Virus record (IMG/VR): IMGVR_UViG_2718217868_000002
Location: 1-13,126 of that record
Length of the DNA stretch: 13,126 nt
DNA from: a virus
Taxonomy: Duplodnaviria; Heunggongvirae; Uroviricota; Caudoviricetes
Direction: 5' to 3' (one strand)
A program made the position numbers and the translations under genes. The notes below the pieces were generated by a model, which worked only from the letters and a program-made list of their open reading frames with translations, had not been told where the DNA came from and made no database searches. Of the stretch, positions 1,889 through 13,126 are shown in pieces (position 1 is the first letter of the stretch; every line of letters starts with the position of its first letter).

Positions 1889-2902
1889 TTACTCTACTGT
1901 GGACACTGTGTGGACACTCTCGGCCTCAGTACCACCTCTTAGCGGATTAAGAGAAATGGCGTCCTGAAGGTACTCTGGCGCAAAGTGAGCGTAAACCATA
2001 GTTTGCTCAATCCGCGTGTGACCTAGTATCCGTTGTAGCGTGATAATACTTCCTCCATTAATCATGAAATGAGTGGCAAAGCTGTGCCTTAGTGCATGTG
2101 TGGCTTGCCCCATTGGCAAATCCGGTTTTATTGCTTTCATTGTTCGTCTGAAGCGAGGGTAATCAGCATCAGGGAATAAAAAACCTCGTTTGTTATCCGC
2201 GATCATTTTGGCAACAGCCTCTGAGATCGGGACGGTGCGTGGTTTGTTTGTTTTCGTTTTAACAAACGTGACGCGGTTATGGATGATATTTTCTGCTTTC
2301 AAACGAGCTGCTTCTCCCCAACGTGCTCCAGTACTCAGGCAAAGAATCGCAATCTTTTTATTGTCGCCGTCAAGAGCAGCAAGCAGTAAGGCAATTTCTT
2401 CCTGCGTGAGATAGCCTGTGTCTGGTTTTTCCTCCTTAAGCCTTTTTGTCCCTCTGATAGGGTGCTCACCAAAGAATAACTCCGCTTCAATCAGGGCTGT
2501 AAACATGCCGCTAATACATGTTAAATCACGATTGATACTCGAAGGTTTAATACCCTGACTTCTTCGGGTGGCGCAGTACTGGCTGATAAGCGATTTCGTA
2601 ATTTGAAATGCGCATGGGTCATTCGTTATTTTTGTGAAGATTTCAATTTTTCCAAGATTAGATTTCCCATGCTCTTCGTGTTTACCCTTTAAATCCCACC
2701 AGATCTGTGTCAGCTCCGACAGACGTCGCTTGTCTGTTGGTTTTGATAGCCATTCTTTATTGTGGTGGTTGTACAACGTGTATTTCTCGAAAGCGACAGC
2801 TTCGCTTTTCTTATCAAACTTCCTACGGATGCGTTTTCCATTACGTCCAGTAGGGCGGATGTCCACTTCATATCGACCATCATCGAGTTTTTTGATTGCC
2901 AT
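1889..2902 (-). CDS. int: P2-type tyrosine integrase (337 aa)
   Basis: ATG at 2900-2902 (minus) with GGAGGG RBS upstream; TAA at 1889-1891. C-terminal catalytic region with HALRHSFAT...LGH...Y (R-H-R-Y tyrosine recombinase signature). Length and N-terminus MAIKKLDDGRYEVDIRP match phage P2 Int as I recall it. Confidence 0.95.
   Translation of the reverse strand: MAIKKLDDGRYEVDIRPTGRNGKRIRRKFDKKSEAVAFEKYTLYNHHNKEWLSKPTDKRRLSELTQIWWDLKGKHEEHGKSNLGKIEIFTKITNDPCAFQITKSLISQYCATRRSQGIKPSSINRDLTCISGMFTALIEAELFFGEHPIRGTKRLKEEKPDTGYLTQEEIALLLAALDGDNKKIAILCLSTGARWGEAARLKAENIIHNRVTFVKTKTNKPRTVPISEAVAKMIADNKRGFLFPDADYPRFRRTMKAIKPDLPMGQATHALRHSFATHFMINGGSIITLQRILGHTRIEQTMVYAHFAPEYLQDAISLNPLRGGTEAESVHTVSTVE
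1898..1918. repeat. Tandem direct repeat TGTGGACACT x2 (1898-1907 and 1909-1918); candidate arm-type Int binding sites (P' arm)
   Basis: Two 10-bp identical copies one helical turn apart, overlapping the 3' end of int. Assignment as Int arm sites is from recollection of P2 arm-site consensus (TGTGGACA-like), not verified. Confidence 0.4.
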
Positions 2903-3017
2903 CAGAAAACCCTCCGAGTGGTGTGTTTTTTGGCGACTACTAATCGCTTTTTTCGTGGTGGCTGAAATTTAGCCACCAATAGTAGGCACTTGTGATGAAT
3001 ATATTCACGATGAATTG

Positions 3018-3317
3018 TTAACCAGTCTTTTGACCGGAGTGGGGCGACGTTGTTTCGTTTTGCCCAAAGTGTGCGAGAGCGGGCGCAATTTGCCCGGACT
3101 CAGGAGCGATCTGATTGGTCATGAACCATAAAGTGTATTTGGTGAATTGTGGGGTCTGCAGGATGTTCATCATGACATCTGTTGGAGGTGTTGAACGACC
3201 ACTTTCATAGTAACTCAGCGTGCCATACGGAACCCCTGTTAAATCAGCAAGTTGTTGTCTGCTCAAATACTCTGATTTTCGCATTAAGACTATCTTCTCG
3301 CTTATCGTGTTTGACAT
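3018..3317 (-). CDS. C: Immunity repressor C (99 aa, P2 C-like, helix-turn-helix)
   Basis: 99-aa ORF divergent from cox; HTH-like segment LSRQQLADLTGVPYGTLSYYESG. Position (between int and cox) and size match P2 C. Confidence 0.9.
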   Translation of the reverse strand: MSNTISEKIVLMRKSEYLSRQQLADLTGVPYGTLSYYESGRSTPPTDVMMNILQTPQFTKYTLWFMTNQIAPESGQIAPALAHFGQNETTSPHSGQKTG

Positions 3318-3352
3318 GGTGTTTAGATCTCAATAGTATTTAGTTTAGATGT
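3311..3352 (+). promoter_or_regulatory. Early promoter Pe with C-operator direct repeats
   Basis: -35 TTGACA (3311-3316), 17-bp spacer, -10 TAGTAT (3334-3339). Two 10-bp direct repeats GTTTAGATCT (3321-3330) and GTTTAGATGT (3343-3352), 22 bp centre to centre, flank the -10. This is the P2-type arrangement of C operator half-sites, from memory of P2 biology. Confidence 0.55.
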
Positions 3353-3380
3353 AGATTGTTTAGTGCTTGGATGTGGGCAC

Positions 3381-3408
3381 TAAAAGGCATTATAAGGCAT
3401 TAAACGCA
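3381..3408. promoter_or_regulatory. Three phased cox-box-like repeats (TAAAAGGCA, TATAAGGCA, TTAAACGCA) overlapping a candidate Pc -10 (TATAAT on minus strand, 3389-3394)
   Basis: Tandem 9-bp repeats with about 10-bp periodicity upstream of cox; resemble the Cox recognition consensus TTAAA(G/C)NCA as I recall it. The Pc -35 is not convincingly identified. Confidence 0.45.
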
Positions 3409-3431
3409 ATTCATGAGGGCTGGAGGACGAC

Positions 3432-3707
3432 ATGAGCAAGCAAGTAACACTCATGACTGATGCGATTCCTTATCAGGAGTTCGCAAAACTAATAGGAAAA
3501 TCGACAGGAGCGGTTCGTCGGATGATCGATAAAGGAAAGCTGCCTGTAATTGATATGACCGATCCACAATCAGCTTCAGGTCGTGCAGGTGAATATTGGG
3601 TATACCTTCCGGCATGGAATAACGGACTAAAACTGGCTTATGAAAGCCGCCCTAAAGAGATTCGTGACGGCTGGTTGATGTGGTTAGGTCTCGGTGAACC
3701 ACGTTAA
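3432..3707 (+). CDS. cox: Cox (excisionase / Pc repressor, 91 aa)
   Basis: ATG at 3432 preceded by GGAGGA (3422-3427). 91 aa, first gene of the rightward early operon, as in P2. Confidence 0.9.
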   Translation: MSKQVTLMTDAIPYQEFAKLIGKSTGAVRRMIDKGKLPVIDMTDPQSASGRAGEYWVYLPAWNNGLKLAYESRPKEIRDGWLMWLGLGEPR

Positions 3708-3717
3708 GGAGAACCGT

Positions 3718-3888
3718 ATGAATGAGCCTCGTTGTATTGCTCAGTTACTGCGTAACGAAAGCCCCAGGGCGATTGACTTCAACATCACCCACGGTAAGGG
3801 GCGTAAGGGAATCATTATCCGCACCAAAAAACAGAGTCCGTTAAAAAAGGCTCTGACCTTTCTGAAAAGCCGGAGGGTATGGAAATGA
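3718..3888 (+). CDS. Small early protein, P2 orf78-like (56 aa)
   Basis: ATG at 3718 with AAGGAG RBS (3706-3711). Basic small protein. The track ORF start at 3694 overlaps the cox 3' end and lacks an RBS. Stop overlaps the B start (ATGA). Confidence 0.6.
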   Translation: MNEPRCIAQLLRNESPRAIDFNITHGKGRKGIIIRTKKQSPLKKALTFLKSRRVWK

Positions 3889-4385
3889 CAGTGATGACGC
3901 TCAATCTCGTTGAAAAACAGCCAGCAACTATGCGCCGGATAATTGGTAAGCATCTGGCCGTCCCTCGCTGGCAGGAGACATGCGATTATTATAATCAGAT
4001 GATGGAACGTGAACGGCTAACGGTTTGCTTCCATGCGCAGTTAAAACAGCGTCACGCAACGATGCGTTTTGAAGAAATGAACGACGTCGAACGTGAACGA
4101 CTGGTATGTGCAATTGATGAATTGCGTGGGGCATTCTCAAAACGCCGTCAGGTTGGCGCAAGTGAGTATGCATATATTAGTTTTTTAACAGTCAGTCAGC
4201 GTCGCACTTTATTTATGCACGCACGACTGACAGAAAAAGAATTTAACCAGCCATACTGGCGAATTAATGAAGAATCATGTTACTGGCGTGATGCTTTATT
4301 CCGTGCATTACGTGAATTATTCAGTCTGTTTGAGTATGCACCGACAATTCTGACGTCGGTAAAACCAGAGCAATATCTGCATTAA
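3885..4385 (+). CDS. B: Replication protein B (166 aa; P2 B-like, helicase-loader function)
   Basis: ATG at 3885 (7 nt after GGAGGG). Size and position match P2 gene B. Confidence 0.85.
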   Translation: MTVMTLNLVEKQPATMRRIIGKHLAVPRWQETCDYYNQMMERERLTVCFHAQLKQRHATMRFEEMNDVERERLVCAIDELRGAFSKRRQVGASEYAYISFLTVSQRRTLFMHARLTEKEFNQPYWRINEESCYWRDALFRALRELFSLFEYAPTILTSVKPEQYLH

Positions 4386-4448
4386 GTAATTAACCAGAGT
4401 TTTTAACGCACTTAATTGTGCGGGGCTTCTTTTTGCCTGGAGAAAGTC

Positions 4449-4673
4449 ATGCATACAGTTTCTGAAAATCAGTGCGGTATATACGCATTACTGCTGCAAC
4501 AGGCCAGAACCGAAGCACAGGCCGACGCTGCGACGCGCTTTTCTTCTCATCTTGACGCCATGATTCGCCACATCACAAAGGCGGAGTTATCCCGCGTGGA
4601 GATAGTCGAGCTGCTCAGTCAGGAGTCGGAAAAATTTCACAATATCGGATTGTCTCGTGGGGAGGTGCTTTGA
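4449..4673 (+). CDS. Hypothetical early protein (P2 orf80-like)
   Basis: ATG at 4449 after GGAGAAAG; stop TGA at 4671-4673 overlaps the next start. Start choice uncertain (track ORF begins at 4416). Confidence 0.5.
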
Positions 4674-4975
4674 TGTCCTGTTCTCATTCAGTTGTATTAC
4701 TGAATAACGCCTTAAAAATCGCCGTTATGGAAAATGGCGATTTGTCTCTTATTCAACTTGGTCTTGATAAAGAAAAGCGCGACATAACTGAATCTGTTAT
4801 CGCGATTTATCAGAGCGAATTAAACCTCCTGTCTGATGTGATCAATTTACTTGTGAAACGCGCTGTATTTCACAAGCAAATTTCCTCAGTGGATGAACTG
4901 ACAAAATTAACGACAGAACTCGCCAGCTATTGCGCTGATGAATTTAAGAAACTGAACGACAAAAGGAACTGGTAA
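4673..4975 (+). CDS. Hypothetical early protein (P2 orf81-like)
   Basis: ATG at 4673 (TGATG overlap with upstream stop), GGAGG RBS at 4661-4665; 100 aa. Confidence 0.6.
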   Translation: MSCSHSVVLLNNALKIAVMENGDLSLIQLGLDKEKRDITESVIAIYQSELNLLSDVINLLVKRAVFHKQISSVDELTKLTTELASYCADEFKKLNDKRNW

Positions 4976-5199
4976 TGCCGGACAACGTAGATTTCATTCA
5001 GGAACAACAGGCTGAATTACTGGAGCGCCAGATTAACGCGGCAAGGGTAAAACATTGCGGTGCTTCTGCGCTGGTTTGCGAAGAGTGTGACGCGCCAATA
5101 CCTGCTGCCCGTCGTGCGGCTTATCCGTCAGCCACGCGTTGTGTTTCCTGTCAGTCAGTCTTTGAAGCAAAAAACAAACATTACCGGAGAACGGCATGA
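4975..5199 (+). CDS. TraR/DksA-family C4 zinc-finger protein (P2 orf82-like, 74 aa)
   Basis: CEEC-x17-CVSC (Cys35/38 and Cys56/59) is the CxxC-x17-CxxC spacing of zf-DksA/TraR proteins. ATG at 4975 with TAATG overlap. Confidence 0.7.
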   Translation: MPDNVDFIQEQQAELLERQINAARVKHCGASALVCEECDAPIPAARRAAYPSATRCVSCQSVFEAKNKHYRRTA

Positions 5200-5471
5200 G
5201 TATTCGTATTGAAATTGGCGAACGTTATGTCGTTACCAGTGACAGCTTCCAGTTTATTCTCCACGAGAAAAAGAGAGCGGAAAGCGGTAAAAACGCCGGT
5301 CAGGAATGGCTGGCGGTGGTTGGTTATTACCCGAAATTAAGCCAGCTCGTTTCCGGCCTGATGCATCACGATATTCTGACCGGAAGCGCAAAGTCTTTTG
5401 CTGATTTAAACGCGCAGGTTGAGCAACTCAGCAAGCGTTGTTCAGAGGCTTTTGGCTCATATGGCCGTTAA
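5196..5471 (+). CDS. Hypothetical early protein (P2 orf83-like, 91 aa)
   Basis: ATG at 5196 (ATGA overlap with upstream gene), GGAGA RBS. Confidence 0.6.
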   Translation: MSIRIEIGERYVVTSDSFQFILHEKKRAESGKNAGQEWLAVVGYYPKLSQLVSGLMHHDILTGSAKSFADLNAQVEQLSKRCSEAFGSYGR

Positions 5472-7773
5472 AGCCTCCGGGCGTTTTGTCCCTCCGTCAG
5501 CATTTGCCGCAGGCACCGGTAAGACGTTTACCGGTGCTTATGCATGGAACGCGCCACGCGAGGCCGTCGGGCGCGAAAGACCCCTTACACGTGACGAGAT
5601 GCGTCAGGTGCAAGGTGTTTTATCCACGATTAACCGCCTGCCTTACTTTTTGCGTTCGCTGTTTACTTCACGCTATGACTACATCCGGCGCAATAAAAGC
5701 CCGGTGCACGGGTTTTATTTCCTCACATCCACTTTTCAGCGTCGTTTATGGCCGCGCATTGAGCGCGTGAATCAGCGCCATGAAATGAACACCGACGCGT
5801 CGTTACTGTTTCTGGCAGAGCGTGACCACTATGCGCGCCTGCCGGGAATGAATGACAAGGAGCTGAAAAAATTTGCCGCCCGTATCTCATCGCAGCTTTT
5901 CATGATGTATGAGGAACTCTGCGATGCCTGGGTGGATGCCCATGGCGAAAAAGAATCGCTGTTTACGGATGAGGCGCAGGCTCACCTGTATGGTCATGTT
6001 GCTGGCGCTGCACGTGCTTTCAATATTTCCCCGCTCTACTGGAAAAAATACCGTAAAGGACAGATGACCACGAGGCAGGCATATTCTGCCATTGCCCGCC
6101 TGTTTAACGATGAGTGGTGGACTCATCAGCTTAAAGGCCAGCGTATGCGCTGGCATGAGGCGTTACTGATTGCTGTCGGGGAGGTCAATAAAGACCGTTC
6201 TCCTTATGCCAGTAAACATGCCATTCGTGATGTGCGTGCACGCCGCCAGGCAAATCTGGAATTTCTTAAATCGTGTGACCTTGAAAACAGGGAAACCGGC
6301 GAGCGCATCGACCTTATCAGTAAGGTGATGGGCAGTATTTCTAATCCTGAAATTCGCCGGATGGAGCTGATGAACACCATTGCCGGTATTGAGCGTTACG
6401 CCGCAGCAGAGGGTGATGTGGGGATGTTTATCACGCTGACCGCGCCGTCAAAGTATCACCCGACACGTCAGGTCGGAAAAGGCGAAAGTAAAACCGTCCA
6501 GCTAAATCACGGCTGGAACGATGAGGCATTTAATCCAAAGGATGCGCAGCGTTATCTCTGCCATATCTGGAGCCTGATGCGCACGGCATTCAAGGATAAT
6601 GATTTACAGGTCTACGGTTTGCGTGTCGTCGAGCCACACCACGACGGAACGCCGCACTGGCATATGATGCTTTTTTGTAATCCACGCCAGCGTAACCAGA
6701 TTATTGAAATCATGCGTCGCTATGCGCTCAAAGAGGATGGCGACGAAAGAGGAGCCGCGCGAAACCGTTTTCAGGCAAAACACCTTAACCGGGGCGGTGC
6801 TGCGGGATATATCGCGAAATACATCTCAAAAAACATCGACGGCTATGCACTGGATGGTCAGCTCGATAATGATACCGGTAGGCCGCTGAAAGACACAGCT
6901 GCGGCTGTTACCGCATGGGCGTCAACGTGGCGCATTCCGCAATTTAAAACGGTTGGTCTGCCGACAATGGGGGCTTACCGTGAACTACGCAAATTGCCTC
7001 GCGGCGTCAGCATTGCTGATGAGTTTGACGAGCGCGTCGAGGCTGCACGCGCCGCCGCAGACAGTGGTGATTTTGCGTTGTATATCAGCGCGCAGGGTGG
7101 GGCAAATGTCCCGCGCGATTGTCAGACTGTCAGGGTCGCCCGTAGCCCGTCGGATGACGTTAACGAGTATGAGGAAGAAGTCGAGAGAGTGGTCGGCATT
7201 TACGCGCCGCATCTCGGCGCGCGTCATATTCATATCACCAGAACGACGGACTGGCGCATTGTTCCGAAAGTGCCGGTCTTTGAGCCTTTGACTTTAAAAA
7301 GCGGCATCGCCGCGCCTCGGAGTCCTGTCAATAACTGTGGAAAGCCTGCCAGCAGTGATACTTCGTTACCGGCTCCCACACCTTCTGAACATGCCGCAGC
7401 AGTGCTTAATCTGGTAGATGACGGTGTTATCGAATGGAGTGACCCGGAGGTTGTGAGGGCGCTCAGGGATGCATTAAAACACGGCCTGAAAACACCAAAT
7501 CGTCAGCAAAGAAACGGAAGCCCGTTAAAACTACATGAAATAGCACCGTCGGCCAGACTGACCAGGTCGGAACGAATGCAAATCACCCGTATCCGCGTTG
7601 ACCTTGTTCAGAATGGTATCAGGCCTCAGCGATGGGAGCTTGAGGCGTTGGTTCGAGGAGCGAGAGTAAATTATGGTGATATGTCATTCAAATTTCCAAT
7701 TGATGATCGATTTTATGATGATGTTAACTCTTTGAATTTATGGAGTATTGAGTCTCGTGTGAACTTCACATAA
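5461..7773 (+). CDS. A: Replication initiation protein A (rolling-circle initiator, P2 A-like)
   Basis: About 770 aa from ATG 5461 (MAVKASGRFVPP...); the track ORF begins at a TTG at 5419. Large GC-rich gene in the position of P2 A. The last ~35 codons (about 7665-7773) switch abruptly to AT-rich composition. Confidence 0.85.
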   Translation: MAVKASGRFVPPSAFAAGTGKTFTGAYAWNAPREAVGRERPLTRDEMRQVQGVLSTINRLPYFLRSLFTSRYDYIRRNKSPVHGFYFLTSTFQRRLWPRIERVNQRHEMNTDASLLFLAERDHYARLPGMNDKELKKFAARISSQLFMMYEELCDAWVDAHGEKESLFTDEAQAHLYGHVAGAARAFNISPLYWKKYRKGQMTTRQAYSAIARLFNDEWWTHQLKGQRMRWHEALLIAVGEVNKDRSPYASKHAIRDVRARRQANLEFLKSCDLENRETGERIDLISKVMGSISNPEIRRMELMNTIAGIERYAAAEGDVGMFITLTAPSKYHPTRQVGKGESKTVQLNHGWNDEAFNPKDAQRYLCHIWSLMRTAFKDNDLQVYGLRVVEPHHDGTPHWHMMLFCNPRQRNQIIEIMRRYALKEDGDERGAARNRFQAKHLNRGGAAGYIAKYISKNIDGYALDGQLDNDTGRPLKDTAAAVTAWASTWRIPQFKTVGLPTMGAYRELRKLPRGVSIADEFDERVEAARAAADSGDFALYISAQGGANVPRDCQTVRVARSPSDDVNEYEEEVERVVGIYAPHLGARHIHITRTTDWRIVPKVPVFEPLTLKSGIAAPRSPVNNCGKPASSDTSLPAPTPSEHAAAVLNLVDDGVIEWSDPEVVRALRDALKHGLKTPNRQQRNGSPLKLHEIAPSARLTRSERMQITRIRVDLVQNGIRPQRWELEALVRGARVNYGDMSFKFPIDDRFYDDVNSLNLWSIESRVNFT

Positions 7774-7776
7774 TAT
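7748..7776 (+). promoter_or_regulatory. Candidate sigma70 promoter for the cargo operon
   Basis: -35-like TTGAGT (7748-7753), 17-bp spacer, -10-like TAATAT (7771-7776), about 50 nt upstream of the SIR2 start. Weak matches; by-eye only. Confidence 0.3.
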
Positions 7777-7827
7777 GGGGCCGTTGTAGGTGTTTGAATA
7801 ATCAGACTTCAATTCAAAGGGATAATT

Positions 7828-9075
7828 ATGGTTATTTATCAAGGTGGTAAGATAATATCTGAAGATGATTTTTATTCTCATCTTTATTCGTTATGTCAGT
7901 TGGATAATGTAGGGGTTCTTTTAGGCGCGGGAGCATCGGTCGGATGTGGCGGCCAAACTATGAAGCAGGTATGGCAGTTTTTTAAATATGAACATCCTGA
8001 TCTATTGAATTTGTTACTAGAAAAATACTTATTGGTTGACAAAACTGAATCTGAACAAGATATAGTTAATGTTGAGCTTCTAATTGATGAAGTAACTAAA
8101 TTCTTGTCTGTGGCCAAAACAAGACGTAATGAAGACGAACAAAAAGAAATTAGTTTAATATTAAGTGCTTTGTATAAACAAGTAACAAAGGCTGCATTGT
8201 TAACTGGAGAAGAGTTTGGTTGTAAAAATCAAGGGAAGAAAAAACAGTTTAAGTCTCATAAAGAATTAATTTCAAAGTTGATTTCAAATAGGCAGCCGGG
8301 ACAATCGGCTCCGGCACTTTTTACTACCAACTATGATTTGGCATTAGAGTGGGCAGCTGAAGATTTAGGAATTCAGCTATTTAATGGTTTTTCAGGATTG
8401 CATACAAGACAATTTTATCCTCAAAATTTTGATTTGGCATTTAGAAATGTCAATGCAAAAGGGGAGGCTAGATTTGGTCATTATCACGCTTATCTATATA
8501 AATTGCATGGCTCTCTTACATGGTATCAGGATGATTTTTTAATAGTTAATGAGATAAGTGCATCTCAGGCATATGATAATTACATTAAAAATATTATTAA
8601 TGGTGACGGTTTTTACTATGGTCAACATTTAATTTATCCGGGGGCTAATAAATATAGCCATACAATTGGTTTTGTTTACGGTGAAATGTTTAGACGTTTT
8701 GGCGAGTTTTTGTCAAAACCTCAAACCGCTTTGTTTATTAATGGGTTTGGGTTTGGTGATTATCATATAAACAGAATTGTTTTTGGTGCTTTGTTAAATC
8801 CGTCATTTCATGTTGTTATTTATTACCCTGATCTGGAGAATGCTTTAGATAAAGTTAGTAGAGGCGTTGCTTCTGAAGGTGAAAAGGCAATTGATGCTTT
8901 AAAAAATATGCAATTCAATCAAGTGACTATCGTGGGTGGGGGGGCAGATGCTTACTTTGATAGTTTTGTGAAACATCTTCCTTATCCGGTGTTGTTCCCA
9001 AGAGAAAATACTGTTGATGACTTGGTTGAAGCTATTTCTAAATTGTCTAAAGGGGAAGGGAATGTCGCATTTTAA
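7828..9075 (+). CDS. SIR2-family (sirtuin-like / DHS-like NAD-binding) protein, predicted NAD+ hydrolase effector (415 aa)
   Basis: ATG at 7828 with AAGGGA RBS. Glycine-rich loop GAGASVGCGG (aa 33-42, nt 7924-7953). TTNYD motif (aa 166-170, nt 8323-8337). HG(S) motif in KLHGSL (His227, nt 8506-8508). Order and spacing match defence-associated SIR2 domains (ThsA/SIR2_2-like). Gene is about one-third GC against ~55-60% in flanking phage genes (hand count on sample 60-mers). Confidence 0.8.
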   Translation: MVIYQGGKIISEDDFYSHLYSLCQLDNVGVLLGAGASVGCGGQTMKQVWQFFKYEHPDLLNLLLEKYLLVDKTESEQDIVNVELLIDEVTKFLSVAKTRRNEDEQKEISLILSALYKQVTKAALLTGEEFGCKNQGKKKQFKSHKELISKLISNRQPGQSAPALFTTNYDLALEWAAEDLGIQLFNGFSGLHTRQFYPQNFDLAFRNVNAKGEARFGHYHAYLYKLHGSLTWYQDDFLIVNEISASQAYDNYIKNIINGDGFYYGQHLIYPGANKYSHTIGFVYGEMFRRFGEFLSKPQTALFINGFGFGDYHINRIVFGALLNPSFHVVIYYPDLENALDKVSRGVASEGEKAIDALKNMQFNQVTIVGGGADAYFDSFVKHLPYPVLFPRENTVDDLVEAISKLSKGEGNVAF

Positions 9076-10882
9076 ACTATCTGAATTATCTGCTATTGGG
9101 TATGTCGTTGGTCTGGAGGGCGAAAAAATAAGGATAAATCTTCATGAAGGATTGCAAGGTAGGCTCGCCTCTCATAGGGATGGTGTTAGTTCTGTTACTC
9201 AGCCTGGAGATTTGATCGGTTTTGATGCCGGAAATATTCTGGTTGTGGCTCGAGTTACAGATATGGCATTTGTCGAGGCTGATAAAGCACATAAGGCAAA
9301 AATAGGTACATCAGATATAGCAGATATGCCGTTAAGGCAAATAATAGCCTATGCAATAGGTTTTATTAGACGAGATATAGATGGATGTGTGTTTGTTTCG
9401 GAAGACTGGAGGTTACCTGCTCTGGGAGCATCCGCTGTCCCGTTAACATCTGATTTTTTAAATATCGTATATAGTATTGATAAAAATGATCTGGATAAAG
9501 CAATTGAGTTAGAAATAGATTCGAGGACTAAATCAGTTAAAATTTTAGCTAGCATTGATAAATTACTAACCAGGCATATGGCTGTTTTGGGCAGTACTGG
9601 ATATGGTAAATCTAATTTTAATGCTTTACTTACACGCCGCATTTCAGAACAGTACCCTAATGCAAGAATAGTAATTTTTGATATTAATGGCGAGTATTCT
9701 CAGGCTTTTGAAGGTGTTGCTAATGTTAAACATACTATTTTAGGTGAGTTACCAAAAGGAGAGTTTCCAAAACCACCTCTACAGAAAGGAGATATATTTT
9801 CTGAGAATGAACATTACTACTATAGAAAAATACCTTATCAAGCATTGGGATTTGCTGGGTTGATAAAATTACTACGCCCTAGTGATAAGACACAATTACC
9901 TGCATTAAGAAATGCGCTTAATGCTATAAATAGTGTTCATTTTTCCGATGATTCATTCTTTCTTAAGGATGAAGTAGGGGGCGTATTTAATATTTTTGAT
10001 GATTGTAGAGATGAAGGGCAAGAGCTTTTATCTGCGTGGTTGAGTTTCTTAAGAAGAGGGATGCTGTGTAAGGCAAATAAATGGCCGCCGTTTAAAAGTA
10101 TTGCTAACTTGGTTGCGGAGTTTGGTTGCGTGGCGGCGGATTCGCGAAAAGCTGGATCTAGTAAACGAGATGCTTTTAGCTATGGTAATGTTCTGCCATT
10201 GATTAAGATAATTCAACAGTTATCAGAGGATTCTAGATTCAAGTATGTTGTTGATTTAAATGGAGGTGGTGAATTATTAAGTGATGGCAAACATTGGGAA
10301 TTAGCTATGAGACAGGAAGTTGATTATTTCTTTGGTAAAGAAAAGGGAGAGGAGAATGACTGGAATATTCATATTGTTAATTTTAAGCATCTTTCACAAG
10401 ATCATGCTCCAATGCTGTTAAGTGCATTATTAGAAATGTTTGCTGAAGTTCTCTTTCTTAGGGGGCAAAACAAAGCTTTTCCAACCGTGTTACTTCTTGA
10501 AGAGGCGCACCACTATTTAAGAGATCCTTATTCTGAAGTTGATGCACAAATTAAAGCTTATGAAAGACTTGCTAAAGAAGGGCGTAAATTTAAATGTTCA
10601 CTTATTGTGAGCACACAACGACCATCAGAGCTTTCATCAACAGTATTAGCAATGTGTGCAAATTGGTTTTCGTTGCGCCTGACAAATGAGCGTGATTTGC
10701 AGACTTTACGGTATGCGATGGAAAGTGGAAATGAGTTAATGATTCGGCAGATTTCTGGGCTTCCAAGAGGAGATGCAATAGCGTTTGGTGCTGCTTTTAA
10801 TATACCCGTAAGAATTTCAATTCACCCTGCTGTACCCGGTCCGAGATCGTCTGACGCAAGTTATTCTCAAGAATGGCGATAA
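9062..10882 (+). CDS. HerA-like (FtsK/HerA superfamily) P-loop ATPase, 606 aa
   Basis: ATG at 9062 preceded by AGGGGAAGGGA; start lies 14 nt inside the upstream gene (translational coupling). Walker A GSTGYGKS (aa 177-184, nt 9590-9613). Walker B-like VLLLEEAHH (aa 476-484, nt 10487-10513). TQRP motif (aa 518-521, nt 10613-10624), characteristic of HerA/VirB4-type ATPases. N-terminal ~170 aa is consistent with a HAS-barrel. AT-rich like its partner. Confidence 0.8.
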   Translation: MSHFKLSELSAIGYVVGLEGEKIRINLHEGLQGRLASHRDGVSSVTQPGDLIGFDAGNILVVARVTDMAFVEADKAHKAKIGTSDIADMPLRQIIAYAIGFIRRDIDGCVFVSEDWRLPALGASAVPLTSDFLNIVYSIDKNDLDKAIELEIDSRTKSVKILASIDKLLTRHMAVLGSTGYGKSNFNALLTRRISEQYPNARIVIFDINGEYSQAFEGVANVKHTILGELPKGEFPKPPLQKGDIFSENEHYYYRKIPYQALGFAGLIKLLRPSDKTQLPALRNALNAINSVHFSDDSFFLKDEVGGVFNIFDDCRDEGQELLSAWLSFLRRGMLCKANKWPPFKSIANLVAEFGCVAADSRKAGSSKRDAFSYGNVLPLIKIIQQLSEDSRFKYVVDLNGGGELLSDGKHWELAMRQEVDYFFGKEKGEENDWNIHIVNFKHLSQDHAPMLLSALLEMFAEVLFLRGQNKAFPTVLLLEEAHHYLRDPYSEVDAQIKAYERLAKEGRKFKCSLIVSTQRPSELSSTVLAMCANWFSLRLTNERDLQTLRYAMESGNELMIRQISGLPRGDAIAFGAAFNIPVRISIHPAVPGPRSSDASYSQEWR

Positions 10883-11036
10883 TCTTGTGGGAGAATGTAA
10901 TAGGATAACGATAAGTGCATCTATCTGCATTAATTCGAATAAGGTTGAGAGGAGTTCAAAAACAAATTTAGACCGGCATTAGAGTGATTTAGATAGACAT
11001 ATGCAACTGCATTAAAACCGCCCCATGAAGCGGGCG

Positions 11037-11055
11037 GGCGAGGCGGGGAAAGCAC
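11037..11055. other. cos site: 19-nt P2-type cohesive-end sequence GGCGAGGCGGGGAAAGCAC
   Basis: Exact 19-mer matching my recollection of the P2 cohesive end, in the expected prophage position between the right-end accessory genes and Q. Preceded by a GC hairpin, CCGCCC (11018-11023) / GGGCGG (11032-11037). Confidence 0.55.
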
Positions 11056-11196
11056 TGCGCGCTGGCGGTGGTGCTGATTTTATTTTTTCAGCGTCTGAGC
11101 GCGTCGTGATGGCGTTTAGATTGTTAGCCGGGGCGTTGGTGTGTCTGCGGGCTGTTTTGTGCGGTGGTGAGCGTGTGAGGGCGTGATGGCGGGGTG

Positions 11197-11220
11197 TAAA
11201 AAAGCCGCCCGCAGGCGGCG
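11197..11220 (-). terminator. Rho-independent terminator downstream of Q
   Basis: GCCGCC (11204-11209) / GGCGGC (11214-11219) stem with CGCA loop, immediately followed on the minus strand by a T-run (plus-strand A-run 11198-11203), 4 nt after the Q stop codon. Confidence 0.65.
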
Positions 11221-11224
11221 ATGT

Positions 11225-12259
11225 TCAGCCGTTGTCAGTGTCCAGTGAGTAGTTTTTAAAGCGGATGACCTCCTGACCGAGCCAGCCGTTTATCTCGCGG
11301 ATCCTGTCCTGTAACGGGATAAGCTCATTGCGGACAAAGACCTTTGCCACTTTCTCAATATCACCCAGCGACCCGACGTTCTCCGGCTTGCCGCCCATCA
11401 ACTGAAAGGGGATGCGGTGCGCGTCCAGCAGGTCAGCGGCGCTGGCTTTTTTGATATTAAAAAAATCGTCCTTCGTTGCCACTTCACTGAGCGGGATAAT
11501 TTTAATGCCGTCAGCTTTCCCCTGCGGGGCATAGAGAAACAGGTTTTTAAAGTTGTTGCGGCCTTTCGACTTCACCATGTTTTCGCGAAGCATTTCGATA
11601 TCGTTGCGATCCTGCACGGCATCGGTAACGTACATGATGTATCCGGCATGAGCGCCGTTTTCGTAATACTTGCGGCGGAACAGCGTGGCTGACTCATTCA
11701 GCCAGGCAGAGTTAAGGGCGCTGAGATATTCCGGCAGGCCGTACAGCTCCTGATTAATATCCGGCTCCAGCAGATGAAACACGGAGCCAGGTGCGAAGGC
11801 TGTCGGCTCGTTGAAGGAAGGCACCCACCAGTAAACATCCTCCTCCACGCCACGGCGGGTATATTTTGCCGGTGAGGTTTCCAGTCTGATGACCTTGCCG
11901 GTGGTGCTGTAACGCTTTTCCAGAAACGCATTGCCGAACACCAGAAAATCCAGCACAAAGCGGCTGAAATCCTGCTGGGAAAGCCACGGATGCGGGATAA
12001 ATGTCGAGGCCAGAATATTGCGTTTGACGTAAATCGGGGAGCTGTGATGCACGGCAGCACGCAGGCTTTTTGCCAGACCGGTAAAGCTGATTGGTGGCTC
12101 ATACCATCTGCCGTTACTGATGCATTCGACGTAATCCAGAATGTCACGGCGGTCGAGTACCGGCACCGGCTCACCAAAGGTGAATGCCTCCATTTTCGGG
12201 GCGCTGGCGGTCATTTTTTTTGCCGCAGGTTGCGGTGTTTTCCCTTTTTTCTTGCTCAT
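11225..12259 (-). CDS. Q: Portal protein Q (344 aa, P2 Q-like)
   Basis: ATG at 12257-12259 (minus), TGA at 11225-11227. Size and sequence recognised as the P2 capsid portal protein; leftward-transcribed gene adjacent to cos, as in P2. Confidence 0.9.
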   Translation of the reverse strand: MSKKKGKTPQPAAKKMTASAPKMEAFTFGEPVPVLDRRDILDYVECISNGRWYEPPISFTGLAKSLRAAVHHSSPIYVKRNILASTFIPHPWLSQQDFSRFVLDFLVFGNAFLEKRYSTTGKVIRLETSPAKYTRRGVEEDVYWWVPSFNEPTAFAPGSVFHLLEPDINQELYGLPEYLSALNSAWLNESATLFRRKYYENGAHAGYIMYVTDAVQDRNDIEMLRENMVKSKGRNNFKNLFLYAPQGKADGIKIIPLSEVATKDDFFNIKKASAADLLDAHRIPFQLMGGKPENVGSLGDIEKVAKVFVRNELIPLQDRIREINGWLGQEVIRFKNYSLDTDNG

Positions 12260-12528
12260 CAGTAAAACTCCAGAATGGTGGATGTCAGCGGGGTGCTGAT
12301 ACCGGCGGTGAGTGGCTCATTTAACAGGGCGTGCATGGTCGCCCAGGCGAGGTCGGCGTGGCTGGCTTCCTCGCTGCGGCTGGCCTCATAGGTGGCGCTG
12401 CGCCCGCTGCTGGTCATGGTCTTGCGGATAGCCATAAACGAGCTGGTGATGTCGGTGGCGCTGACGTCGTATTCCAGACAGCCACGGCGGATAACGTCTT
12501 TTGCCTTGAGCACCATTGCGGTTTTCAT
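12259..12528 (-). pseudogene. P: Truncated terminase large subunit P (C-terminal ~90 codons only)
   Basis: Minus-strand frame that ends with a TGATG stop/start overlap onto Q, the P-Q operon arrangement. The frame is closed by a stop about 45 codons further upstream and the sequence beyond ~12540 instead reads as coding on the plus strand. An intact P would be about 590 aa. Upstream boundary approximate. Confidence 0.5.
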
Positions 12529-12540
12529 TTCCGGTGTGTG

Positions 12541-12624
12541 CCTCCTCTTGAAAACCTGACCCTGCGCCAGCGTATTACCGATAAATACCTGGCAAATCTG
12601 GTCACCTCGGTTAACAGCAATTAA
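12541..12624 (+). pseudogene. FI: 3' remnant of tail sheath gene FI (last ~28 codons)
   Basis: Plus-strand frame with host-typical codons (CTG, CGC, CAG, ACC) ending at TAA 12622-12624, directly upstream of the FII RBS AAGGAG (12624-12629). Assignment is by position relative to FII. Left boundary uncertain. Confidence 0.35.
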
Positions 12625-12636
12625 GGAGCCTGACCG

Positions 12637-12852
12637 ATGGCAATGCCGCGCAAACTCAAGTTAATGAACGTCTTTCTGAACGGCTACAGCTATCAGGGCG
12701 TTGCAAAGTCCGTCACGCTGCCAAAACTGACCCGTAAGCTCGAAAACTATCGCGGTGCGGGGATGAACGGCAGCGCACCGGTAGACCTCGGCCTTGATGA
12801 CGATGCTCTGTCAATGGAGTGGTCGCTCGGTGGATTCCCGGATTCGGTTATA
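12637..12852 (+). pseudogene. FII: Truncated tail tube gene FII (N-terminal 72 codons)
   Basis: ATG at 12637 after AAGGAG. N-terminus MAMPRKLKLMNVFLNGYSYQGVAKSVTLPKL... recognised as P2 FII. The reading frame breaks after ...GGFPDSVI (about 12852) and then runs to an early stop at 12898-12900. Confidence 0.6.
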
Positions 12853-12853
12853 T

Positions 12854-13126
12854 GCCACGAAAGCACAGGCCATGCGCGCCGCTCAGGCGAAGTGGGATAA
12901 ACTGCAACGGGGCGTTGCGGAGTTCTCCATCAGCCTGGCTACTGGTCGGGCAGATATTTACACGGAAACACCGGTCAAAGTGTCTGGCTTTAAGCGCGTC
13001 ATAGACGAGCAGGACTGGACAATCACTAAGGTGACACACTTTCTGAATAATAGTGGCTTCACGACGTCCTTAGAACTTGAGGTAAGGCTTTCTGATGTGG
13101 AGTACGAAACAGAAGATGATGAGTGA
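12854..13126 (+). pseudogene. D: C-terminal fragment of tail protein D (~90 codons), fused out of frame to FII'
   Basis: Second frame reads ...ATKAQAMRAAQAKWDKLQRGVAEFSISLATGRADIYTETPVKV...SDVEYETEDDE with stop at 13124-13126. Recognised as the C-terminus of P2 gpD (the K-12 yegZ-like remnant). The N-terminal part of the track ORF (12794..) is an out-of-frame read of FII. Confidence 0.55.

Follow-up and report, generated by a model that had tools for sequence, protein, structure and literature searches.

The window, by which we mean the whole 13,126-nucleotide stretch of DNA analysed here, carries on its plus strand two adjacent genes whose reading frames overlap at their junction. The first, at 7828..9075 (+), encodes a SIR2-family NADase of 415 residues ending at the stop codon TAA (9073-9075), as concordantly given by the open reading frame list, PADLOC, Pfam and RefSeq. 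The second, at 9062..10882 (+), encodes a HerA-family ATPase of 606 residues, as given by PADLOC, Pfam, a PDB chain and RefSeq. Residues 1-412 of the 415 in SIR2 match the PADLOC SIR2 model PDLC02186 (E = 3e-188), and the protein also matches Pfam SIR2_2. HerA matches the PADLOC HerA model PDLC02185 (E = 1e-270) and the Pfam DUF87/HerA central domain, with a Walker A motif (GSTGYGKS) at residues 177-184 and a Walker B-like motif (LLLEEAH) at residue 477. The PADLOC and Pfam matches thus uphold the names SIR2 and HerA that the first-pass annotation, made from the letters of the window, had given to the two genes.

Read directly, the HerA ATG occupies 9062-9064 and the SIR2 TAA 9073-9075, so that the genes share the 14 nt ATGTCGCATTTTAA at 9062..9075 (+), which encode (N)VAF-stop in the SIR2 frame and MSHFK in the HerA frame. 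The 3' end of SIR2, as seen in the stretch 8940-9180, runs in frame TCT AAA GGG GAA GGG AAT GTC GCA TTT TAA. Immediately before the HerA ATG, and within the SIR2 codons for K-G-E-G, lies the Shine-Dalgarno-like purine tract AAGGGGAAGGGA (9050..9061, +), of which AGGGGAAGGGA forms positions 9051-9061 and which probably serves HerA as its ribosome-binding site. Positions 1939991-1953116 of the E. coli H6 chromosome have exactly the sequence of the window, and the RefSeq/PGAP annotation of the identical E. coli H6 sequence (our locus L001) places SIR2 at 9049-10296 and HerA at 10283-12103, which correspond to 7828-9075 and 9062-10882 of the window. The 14-nt overlap noticed in the first-pass annotation is therefore confirmed by direct reading, the open reading frame list and the RefSeq coordinates alike.

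A defence system between two phage genes

The best solved-structure matches were 8j4u_A for SIR2 and 8j4u_M for HerA. Across all 415 residues SIR2 is 81% identical to the SIR2 of E. coli NCTC11129, whose sequence is that of 8j4u_A; this chain, likewise of 415 residues and ending GEGNVPF, aligned end to end with the window SIR2. HerA is 77% identical to its NCTC11129 counterpart (PDB 8J4U). A 2026 survey clustered the Sir2 proteins of E. coli at 70% identity and gave the name 'Nezha' to the cluster containing 8J4U, its cluster 1 (PMC13434337), and since 81% identity to the 8J4U SIR2 lies above that threshold, the pair is assigned by sequence to the Nezha-type anti-phage defence systems. The order of the genes, SIR2 followed by an adjacent HerA on the same strand, was identical in 71/71 comparable loci.

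The EcSir2-HerA of the published work came from E. coli NCTC 11129 (PMC11514289), and the EcSir2-HerA/Nezha structures, PDB 8J4U, 8SU9 and related entries, are credited in the same paper to Tang et al. 2023 and Shen et al. 2023. The NCTC11129 locus resembles the window in gene order, in protein lengths (within 4 residues), in the 14-nt overlap (SIR2 at 3027-4274, HerA at 4261-6093; locus L085) and in its placement between a P2 gene A and a portal gene. The two differ by about 20% amino-acid divergence and in the state of gene A. In the window this gene is intact and stops 54 nt short of SIR2; the NCTC11129 annotation has it as a truncated pseudogene, the end of which lies 226 nt ahead of SIR2.

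On its left the pair is bordered by the P2-type replication gene A (5461..7773, +; Pfam Phage_GPA, E = 2e-124; RefSeq 'replication endonuclease') and on its right by the P2-type portal gene, gpQ (11225..12259, -; Pfam Phage_portal; RefSeq 'phage portal protein'). The mechanically called open reading frame of gene A starts further upstream, at TTG 5419. Together the SIR2 and HerA genes make up a low-GC cargo block (7774..10882, +) with 36.5% GC, compared with 53% in gene A and the portal gene. The overall order is yegS, yegR, a P2-like prophage with integrase, C-type repressor, cox, small early genes and gene A, then SIR2-HerA and the portal gene, beyond which only fragments of terminase, tail tube and gpD are found. 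The host element is a defective (decayed) P2-like prophage of E. coli.

The interval between gpA and gpQ, in which SIR2-HerA sits, is a defence hotspot of P2-like phages in the relevant passages of Rousset et al. (PMC9122126). The hotspot cargo of phage P2 itself, old and tin, resembles that of the window in being a low-GC defence insert beside the cos-proximal region, and SIR2+HerA is named in those passages explicitly for the P4 hotspot. In short, the locus holds a variant of a defence system already characterised by experiment and by structure, and the prophage hotspot it occupies was known before.

The start codon of HerA and reading of the overlap

The HerA frame is open from TTG 9014 to 10882, and it offers four in-frame starts: TTG 9014, ATG 9017, TTG 9026 and ATG 9062. 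Translation from TTG 9014 or ATG 9017, which the first-pass annotation had set against its own choice of 9062, would produce a protein of 622 or 621 residues and lengthen the overlap to 59-62 nt. The open frame allows it, and ATG 9017 is preserved at the DNA level in the clade, as is the TTGATGA around 9014-9019. This conservation at 9014-9028 is, however, accounted for by SIR2, residues V-D-D of which are encoded there. The longer protein is contradicted by Scandinavium lactucae (L003, 79% HerA identity), in which an in-frame TAA separates the 9014/9017 equivalents from the conserved ATG, so that the ATG at -14 is the sole possible HerA start in that genome.

Further evidence points the same way. 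The predicted duplex with the 3' tail of 16S rRNA amounts to -7.9 kcal/mol for 9062 and to only -2.9, -2.9 and -0.9 kcal/mol for 9014, 9017 and 9026, respectively, which leaves the upstream codons without a Shine-Dalgarno sequence; relatives carry AAAGGAGAAGG at the HerA site, with -8.7 kcal/mol. The PDB chain 8j4u_M opens MSLFKL and aligned to residue 17 of the 9014 open reading frame, which is the Met at 9062; RefSeq/PGAP uses the 9062-equivalent start in 5/5 annotated E. coli variants; and in the protein read from 9062 the alignment to the PADLOC HerA profile sets in at residue 7. Family-wide, a conserved IGYVV strand follows the chosen HerA start by 5-12 residues, and in other clades it lies only 5-8 residues past the start. 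Keeping in mind that the N-terminal barrel of HerA inserts into the SIR2 ring (PMC11514289), a 16-residue extension from 9014 would also be structurally less plausible. From the Scandinavium stop, the Shine-Dalgarno energies, the PDB and RefSeq starts and the PADLOC profile we assign the HerA start to ATG 9062, where the first-pass annotation had put it, and reject the upstream codons TTG 9014, ATG 9017 and TTG 9026 (9014..9028, +); initiation at 9014 or 9017 is hardly credible. Correct annotation, with the HerA start fixed at 9062, is the main use of this analysis.

The ribosome-binding site ahead of this start had been called strong. The wording is apt to the extent that its duplex of -7.9 kcal/mol beats that of SIR2's own site, at -5.1 kcal/mol, and somewhat generous in that 7.5% of all 20-nt windows in SIR2 and HerA pair just as well.

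The last codons of the overlap lend themselves to another reading, by which some ribosomes would shift +1 at UUU-UAA (9070-9075), enter the HerA frame and produce a SIR2-HerA fusion protein. The tRNA-Phe could re-pair perfectly one base downstream (TTTT, 9070-9073) with the stop codon in the A site, the next codon in the HerA frame is AAA at 9074, and TTTTAAAC is invariant in six clade sequences. Dual coding, with F-stop in SIR2 and F-K in HerA, nevertheless fully accounts for this invariance, the junctions of other clades are of the ATGA type lacking a UUU-UAA motif, and a protein of fusion length was found in 0 of the best 120 HerA homologues. The shift codon comes 9 nt after the end of the Shine-Dalgarno-like tract, and from prfB such a spacing is not known to stimulate +1 shifts. 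Since the conservation is explained by dual coding and no homologue of fusion length was found among those 120, we set the frameshift aside as exceedingly improbable.

Overlap across the SIR2-HerA family

For comparison, 80 loci were gathered through an alignment of 26 HerA homologues, taking one genome per species, and E. coli variants were added. The family count covers the 71 non-redundant loci in which both genes were readable, the SIR2 stop and the HerA start being located in each. To lessen the non-independence of related loci, which such grouping does not remove, HerA proteins were also clustered by single linkage at 70% identity. SIR2 and HerA overlap in 65 of the 71 loci and in 30 of the 34 HerA clusters, with the start codons of distant loci picked by rule and a few of them ambiguous (L029, L038, L044, L059 and L070). 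The junctions fall at -4 in 35 loci, at -1 in 5, at -8 in 8, at -14 in 8, at -11 in 6 (the SIR2 stops of L041 and L042 having been set by hand to give this value) and at -17 or -20 in 3. In the remaining 6/71 loci the genes stand slightly apart (+2 to +35), and overlap is therefore not indispensable.

These counts have to be viewed against how often neighbouring genes overlap in general. Up to one third of prokaryotic genes do so, mostly by a short stretch and with -4, -1 and -8 favoured (reviewed in PMC12548453), and spacings between -8 and +6 nt account for 24% of the 2,987 same-strand pairs of E. coli (PMC10666635). Among the first 71 same-strand E. coli K-12 pairs in Table S2 of PMC10666635, we counted 18 that overlap, one of which, ftsI-murE, does so by exactly 14 nt; the same table does not score ftsI-murE as a complex. 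A general overlap rate of about 25-33% for same-strand pairs emerges from these figures. Six other same-strand junctions within this very prophage overlap too, by 1, 4 or 11 nt. Given the background rates and the overlaps in the prophage, a single 14-nt overlap is unremarkable.

The family as a whole is another matter, as the binomial probability of finding 30/34 clusters overlapping against a background of 33% is 4e-11. Overlap persists among clusters while its length changes repeatedly, and this combination points to selection for a tight junction more than to mere inheritance. The comparison of sequences thus argues for a tight junction having been selected in the SIR2-HerA family, which would fit selection for coordinated synthesis. 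Subunits of heteromeric complexes are over-represented among the products of overlapping gene pairs (PMC10666635), and the family count offers a comparative example of tight-junction selection between partners in such a complex.

The length of 14 nt, on the other hand, is by these alignments specific to a clade, the mode for the family being 4 nt. The enterobacterial Nezha cluster alone has it throughout (5/5), and otherwise it occurs in three single, unrelated loci. A 14-nt overlap is annotated in four other E. coli variants with nucleotide identities of 76-97% (97%, 80%, 76%; NCTC11129 included) and is also present in the Scandinavium locus L003 and in contig L004.

A Shine-Dalgarno motif for HerA inside SIR2 is present in the window, conserved in the clade and enriched family-wide, the junction site ranking in the top 10% of windows inside SIR2 at 42 of the 71 loci. 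The C-terminal tails of SIR2 show no sequence conservation, but codons for Gly, Glu, Lys and Asp, which spell Shine-Dalgarno-like motifs, are abundant in them. A modest by-product of this work is the finding that in about 90% of lineages the two genes either overlap or abut, the variable SIR2 tail carrying a Shine-Dalgarno sequence.

Probable co-expression of SIR2 and HerA and the stoichiometry of homologous complexes

SIR2 and HerA would be read from one transcript; no promoter or terminator signal above shuffle expectation was found between them. The search for an internal HerA promoter gave 12 promoter-like matches compared with 11.1 expected, including only one weak plus-strand match inside SIR2, and the search for a terminator between the genes found none on the plus strand before 11059. 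No match to Rfam was obtained anywhere in the window, and the region upstream of SIR2, aligned among four variants for a conserved promoter, showed patchy similarity only.

In homologous systems, Sir2 alone has no NADase activity and is activated upon HerA binding, a result obtained with the S. aureus system and ascribed to that of E. coli too (PMC11514289). ATP at sub-physiological concentration inhibits the Sir2-HerA complex, again in S. aureus and with the same attribution to E. coli (PMC11514289). The stoichiometry measured for SaSir2-HerA is 12 SIR2 : 6 HerA, and EcSir2 is described as a dodecamer (PMC11514289). Anti-phage protection through NAD+ depletion by the assembled complex is known for homologues only (PMC11514289, PMC11472057, PMC13434337). 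For homologues it is thus already known that the two proteins form a complex and that HerA activates a SIR2 which is inactive by itself; by analogy the same would apply to the pair in the window. The first-pass annotation had expected an ATPase-NADase complex in which the ATPase restrains or activates the effector; close homologues agree, with HerA as the activator and ATP as the restraint (PMC11514289), and the outcome of the experiments it proposed, namely co-purification and a SIR2 inactive on its own, has already been published for homologues.

It had further concluded from the geometry of the junction that co-expression is obligate and stoichiometry fixed. Strict coupling of this kind would mean that HerA is translated only by ribosomes fresh from SIR2, which would fix the ratio of the two proteins. 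The overlap is indeed tight, with the stop codon 11 nt past the start, the products of homologous genes form a defined complex (PMC11514289), and strict translational coupling was found in 13/14 overlapping pairs examined and in most of the E. coli pairs examined (PMC6728339). For strict coupling in E. coli, however, local structure that blocks fresh initiation at the internal Shine-Dalgarno site has been proposed as necessary (Huber et al., PMC6728339), and a search of the 121-nt junction for a hairpin that would conceal the ribosome-binding site of HerA found none. The predicted folding energy of this junction is -14.3 kcal/mol versus -21.9 ± 2.9 kcal/mol for shuffles (z = +2.67), making it less structured than 200/200 of them, and the energy for opening positions -20..+12 around the HerA start (9.9 kcal/mol) is average for the operon (10.9 ± 3.2 kcal/mol). 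As the site is not buried in RNA structure, free ribosomes could initiate there.

As for distance, the range of -8 to +10 nt has been used to predict termination-reinitiation (Huber et al., PMC10666635), and a junction at -14 nt falls outside it. In a synthetic series, coupling dropped steadily as the overlap went from 4 to 25 nt (reviewed in PMC12548453), efficiency thus falling with overlaps longer than 4 nt. The pairs known to be coupled by reinitiation (PMC6728339, PMC10666635, PMC12548453) resemble SIR2-HerA in their co-directional overlap, internal Shine-Dalgarno sequence and heteromeric complex products, but they typically overlap by 4 or 1 nt, whereas SIR2-HerA overlaps by 14 nt and has no structure masking the start. 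A search of the available literature found no paper that connects SIR2-HerA with translational coupling. Obligate co-expression is consequently not implied by the geometry, considering the open site, the distance of -14 nt and the weaker coupling of long overlaps. Nor does a fixed stoichiometry follow, as the reported 12:6 assembly is not 1:1, so that equimolar output, which is what such coupling would deliver, is not what the assembly needs. We consider strict coupling quite improbable.

The opposite possibility is that HerA initiates independently on the shared mRNA and that the overlap came about merely through genome compaction and because short overlaps form easily. The properties of the HerA site described above (a stronger duplex than that of SIR2, average opening energy and a junction RNA less structured than every shuffle) all speak for it, as does the distance of -14 nt, and there is a precedent in bioBF, one of five E. 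coli overlapping pairs examined, which showed de novo initiation and no coupling (PMC6728339). Drift alone, however, would hardly maintain overlap in 30/34 clusters through changes in its length when the background is 25-33%, and the predominance of strictly coupled pairs (13/14) also weighs against it. Complete independence of the two genes is therefore unlikely in our judgement, though it deserves some weight.

We favour, with a probability of roughly three in four, the view that 9062-9075 is the ordinary internal junction of a two-gene Nezha-type operon, carried as gpA/gpQ cargo by a defective P2-like prophage, with partial translational coupling. Part of the ribosomes terminating at TAA 9073-9075 would be caught again by the Shine-Dalgarno site, which lies 11-25 nt upstream of them, and re-initiate at HerA, the start of which lies 11 nt upstream of that stop, and other ribosomes would bind the accessible HerA Shine-Dalgarno site afresh. 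HerA would in this way be made beside and together with SIR2, in a ratio that is not rigidly fixed. By comparison with homologues, HerA binding would then turn on the inactive SIR2 NADase, and cellular ATP would restrain the complex until infection. The overlapping or abutting junction seen throughout the family may reflect selection for coordinated, co-localised synthesis of SIR2 and HerA, and the 14 nt found here would be a lineage-specific accident of where the SIR2 tail ends. The original interpretation of the junction is accordingly retained with respect to operon, complex and activation, and goes too far in the words 'obligate' and 'fixed stoichiometry'.

A more elaborate variant, which we regard as very doubtful, treats the length of the overlap as a tuning knob that would set HerA synthesis at roughly half the SIR2 rate and so match the 12:6 complex. 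Backward re-initiation over 14 nt would be only partly efficient, and ribosomes translating SIR2 would transiently block fresh initiation at HerA. If this were true, the overlaps of 1, 4, 8, 11 and 17 nt in other clades would set the ratios for their own assemblies.

The junction of this characterised defence family is itself a known feature. SIR2-HerA of Paenibacillus sp. 453MF is likewise a two-gene operon with overlapping reading frames (PMC11472057), differing from the window in its longer overlap (26 nt) and distant sequences. Liao et al. state that the two Paenibacillus open reading frames have 26 nt in common; they cloned the native DNA and co-expressed the complex in E. coli (PMC11472057). 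By virtue of that statement, overlap in the SIR2-HerA family has already been noted in print. In the Paenibacillus system, SIR2 passes from a 12-mer to a 14-mer upon HerA binding (PMC11514289).

A defence operon within a decayed prophage

The P2-like prophage that carries the SIR2-HerA operon is defective, as seen in the region 11225-13126, where almost all of the morphogenesis genes are missing. The portal gene (gpQ; 11225-12259, minus strand) is intact and is followed directly, in the RefSeq annotation, by a terminase fragment (12259-12543, minus strand), beyond which the tail tube gene (12637-12852) and gpD (12848-13126) are likewise present only as fragments, all three being annotated as partial pseudogenes. 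The early region of the same prophage is intact, as is its SIR2-HerA cargo, and a dead prophage appears still to keep its defence operon.

Nezha-type (SIR2-HerA) loci detectable with the query used were present in only 46 of 5,426 complete E. coli genomes, where they were chromosomal in every case and fell into three sequence groups, at ≥97%, ~80% and ~76% nucleotide identity. Five E. coli loci spanning all three groups were inspected, and each of them (5/5) occupied the interval between replication gene A and the portal gene.

Boundaries of the cargo

The left edge of the cargo, compared between window 7480-7830 and the corresponding segments of two related loci, L083 (3180-3530) and L085 (the NCTC11129 locus; 2680-3030), varies by lineage; an alignment of four variants upstream of SIR2 showed only patchy similarity and revealed no operon promoter. 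In the window, gene A is intact (5461-7773; 770 aa in RefSeq) and ends 54 nt upstream of SIR2, with its final ~150 nt already low in GC. The gene A product of Combat13F7 has 706 aa and the spacer is 202 nt long, while in NCTC11129 and N58 the annotation makes gene A a pseudogene truncated at its C-terminal end, and the spacer measures 226 nt. The 3' end of gene A seems to contain the recombination boundary.

On the right-hand side, 342 nt (10883-11224) separate the HerA stop from the portal gene stop. On the minus strand this spacer holds two GC-rich terminator-like hairpins, at 11219-11204 and 11037-11018; the plus strand has a weak one at 11059-11074. According to a published account (PMC9122126), the cos site adjoins the equivalent interval in P2-like phages.

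The SIR2-HerA junction

The junction RNA (9000-9120) is unusually unstructured (z = +2.67), with all 200 of 200 dinucleotide shuffles folding at least as well. Across the family (junctions of loci L003-L084), the sequence of the SIR2 C-terminal tail is not conserved; the tails nevertheless abound in Gly, Glu, Lys and Asp, residues with codons that spell Shine-Dalgarno-like motifs for HerA. The tail of the SIR2 protein seems to be shaped by the ribosome-binding site of the downstream gene.

At the SIR2 stop (9070-9077) a SIR2-HerA fusion produced by +1 frameshifting is possible, since on TTTTAAAC tRNA-Phe could re-pair one base 3' and translation would then continue in the HerA frame. The motif is invariant across six clade sequences. 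This invariance is, however, accounted for by dual coding, the same bases specifying F-stop in SIR2 and F-K in HerA, and no homologues of fusion length were seen among the 120 best HerA matches.

One junction came from a contig labelled 'MAG: Bacillota bacterium' (L004; JAEYGZ010000011.1, 7015 bp), in which a Nezha locus is present. Over 121 nt its junction matches that of E. coli N58 exactly, and its identities to the window (81% for SIR2, 77% for HerA) equal those of N58. The contig is probably of enterobacterial origin and misbinned.
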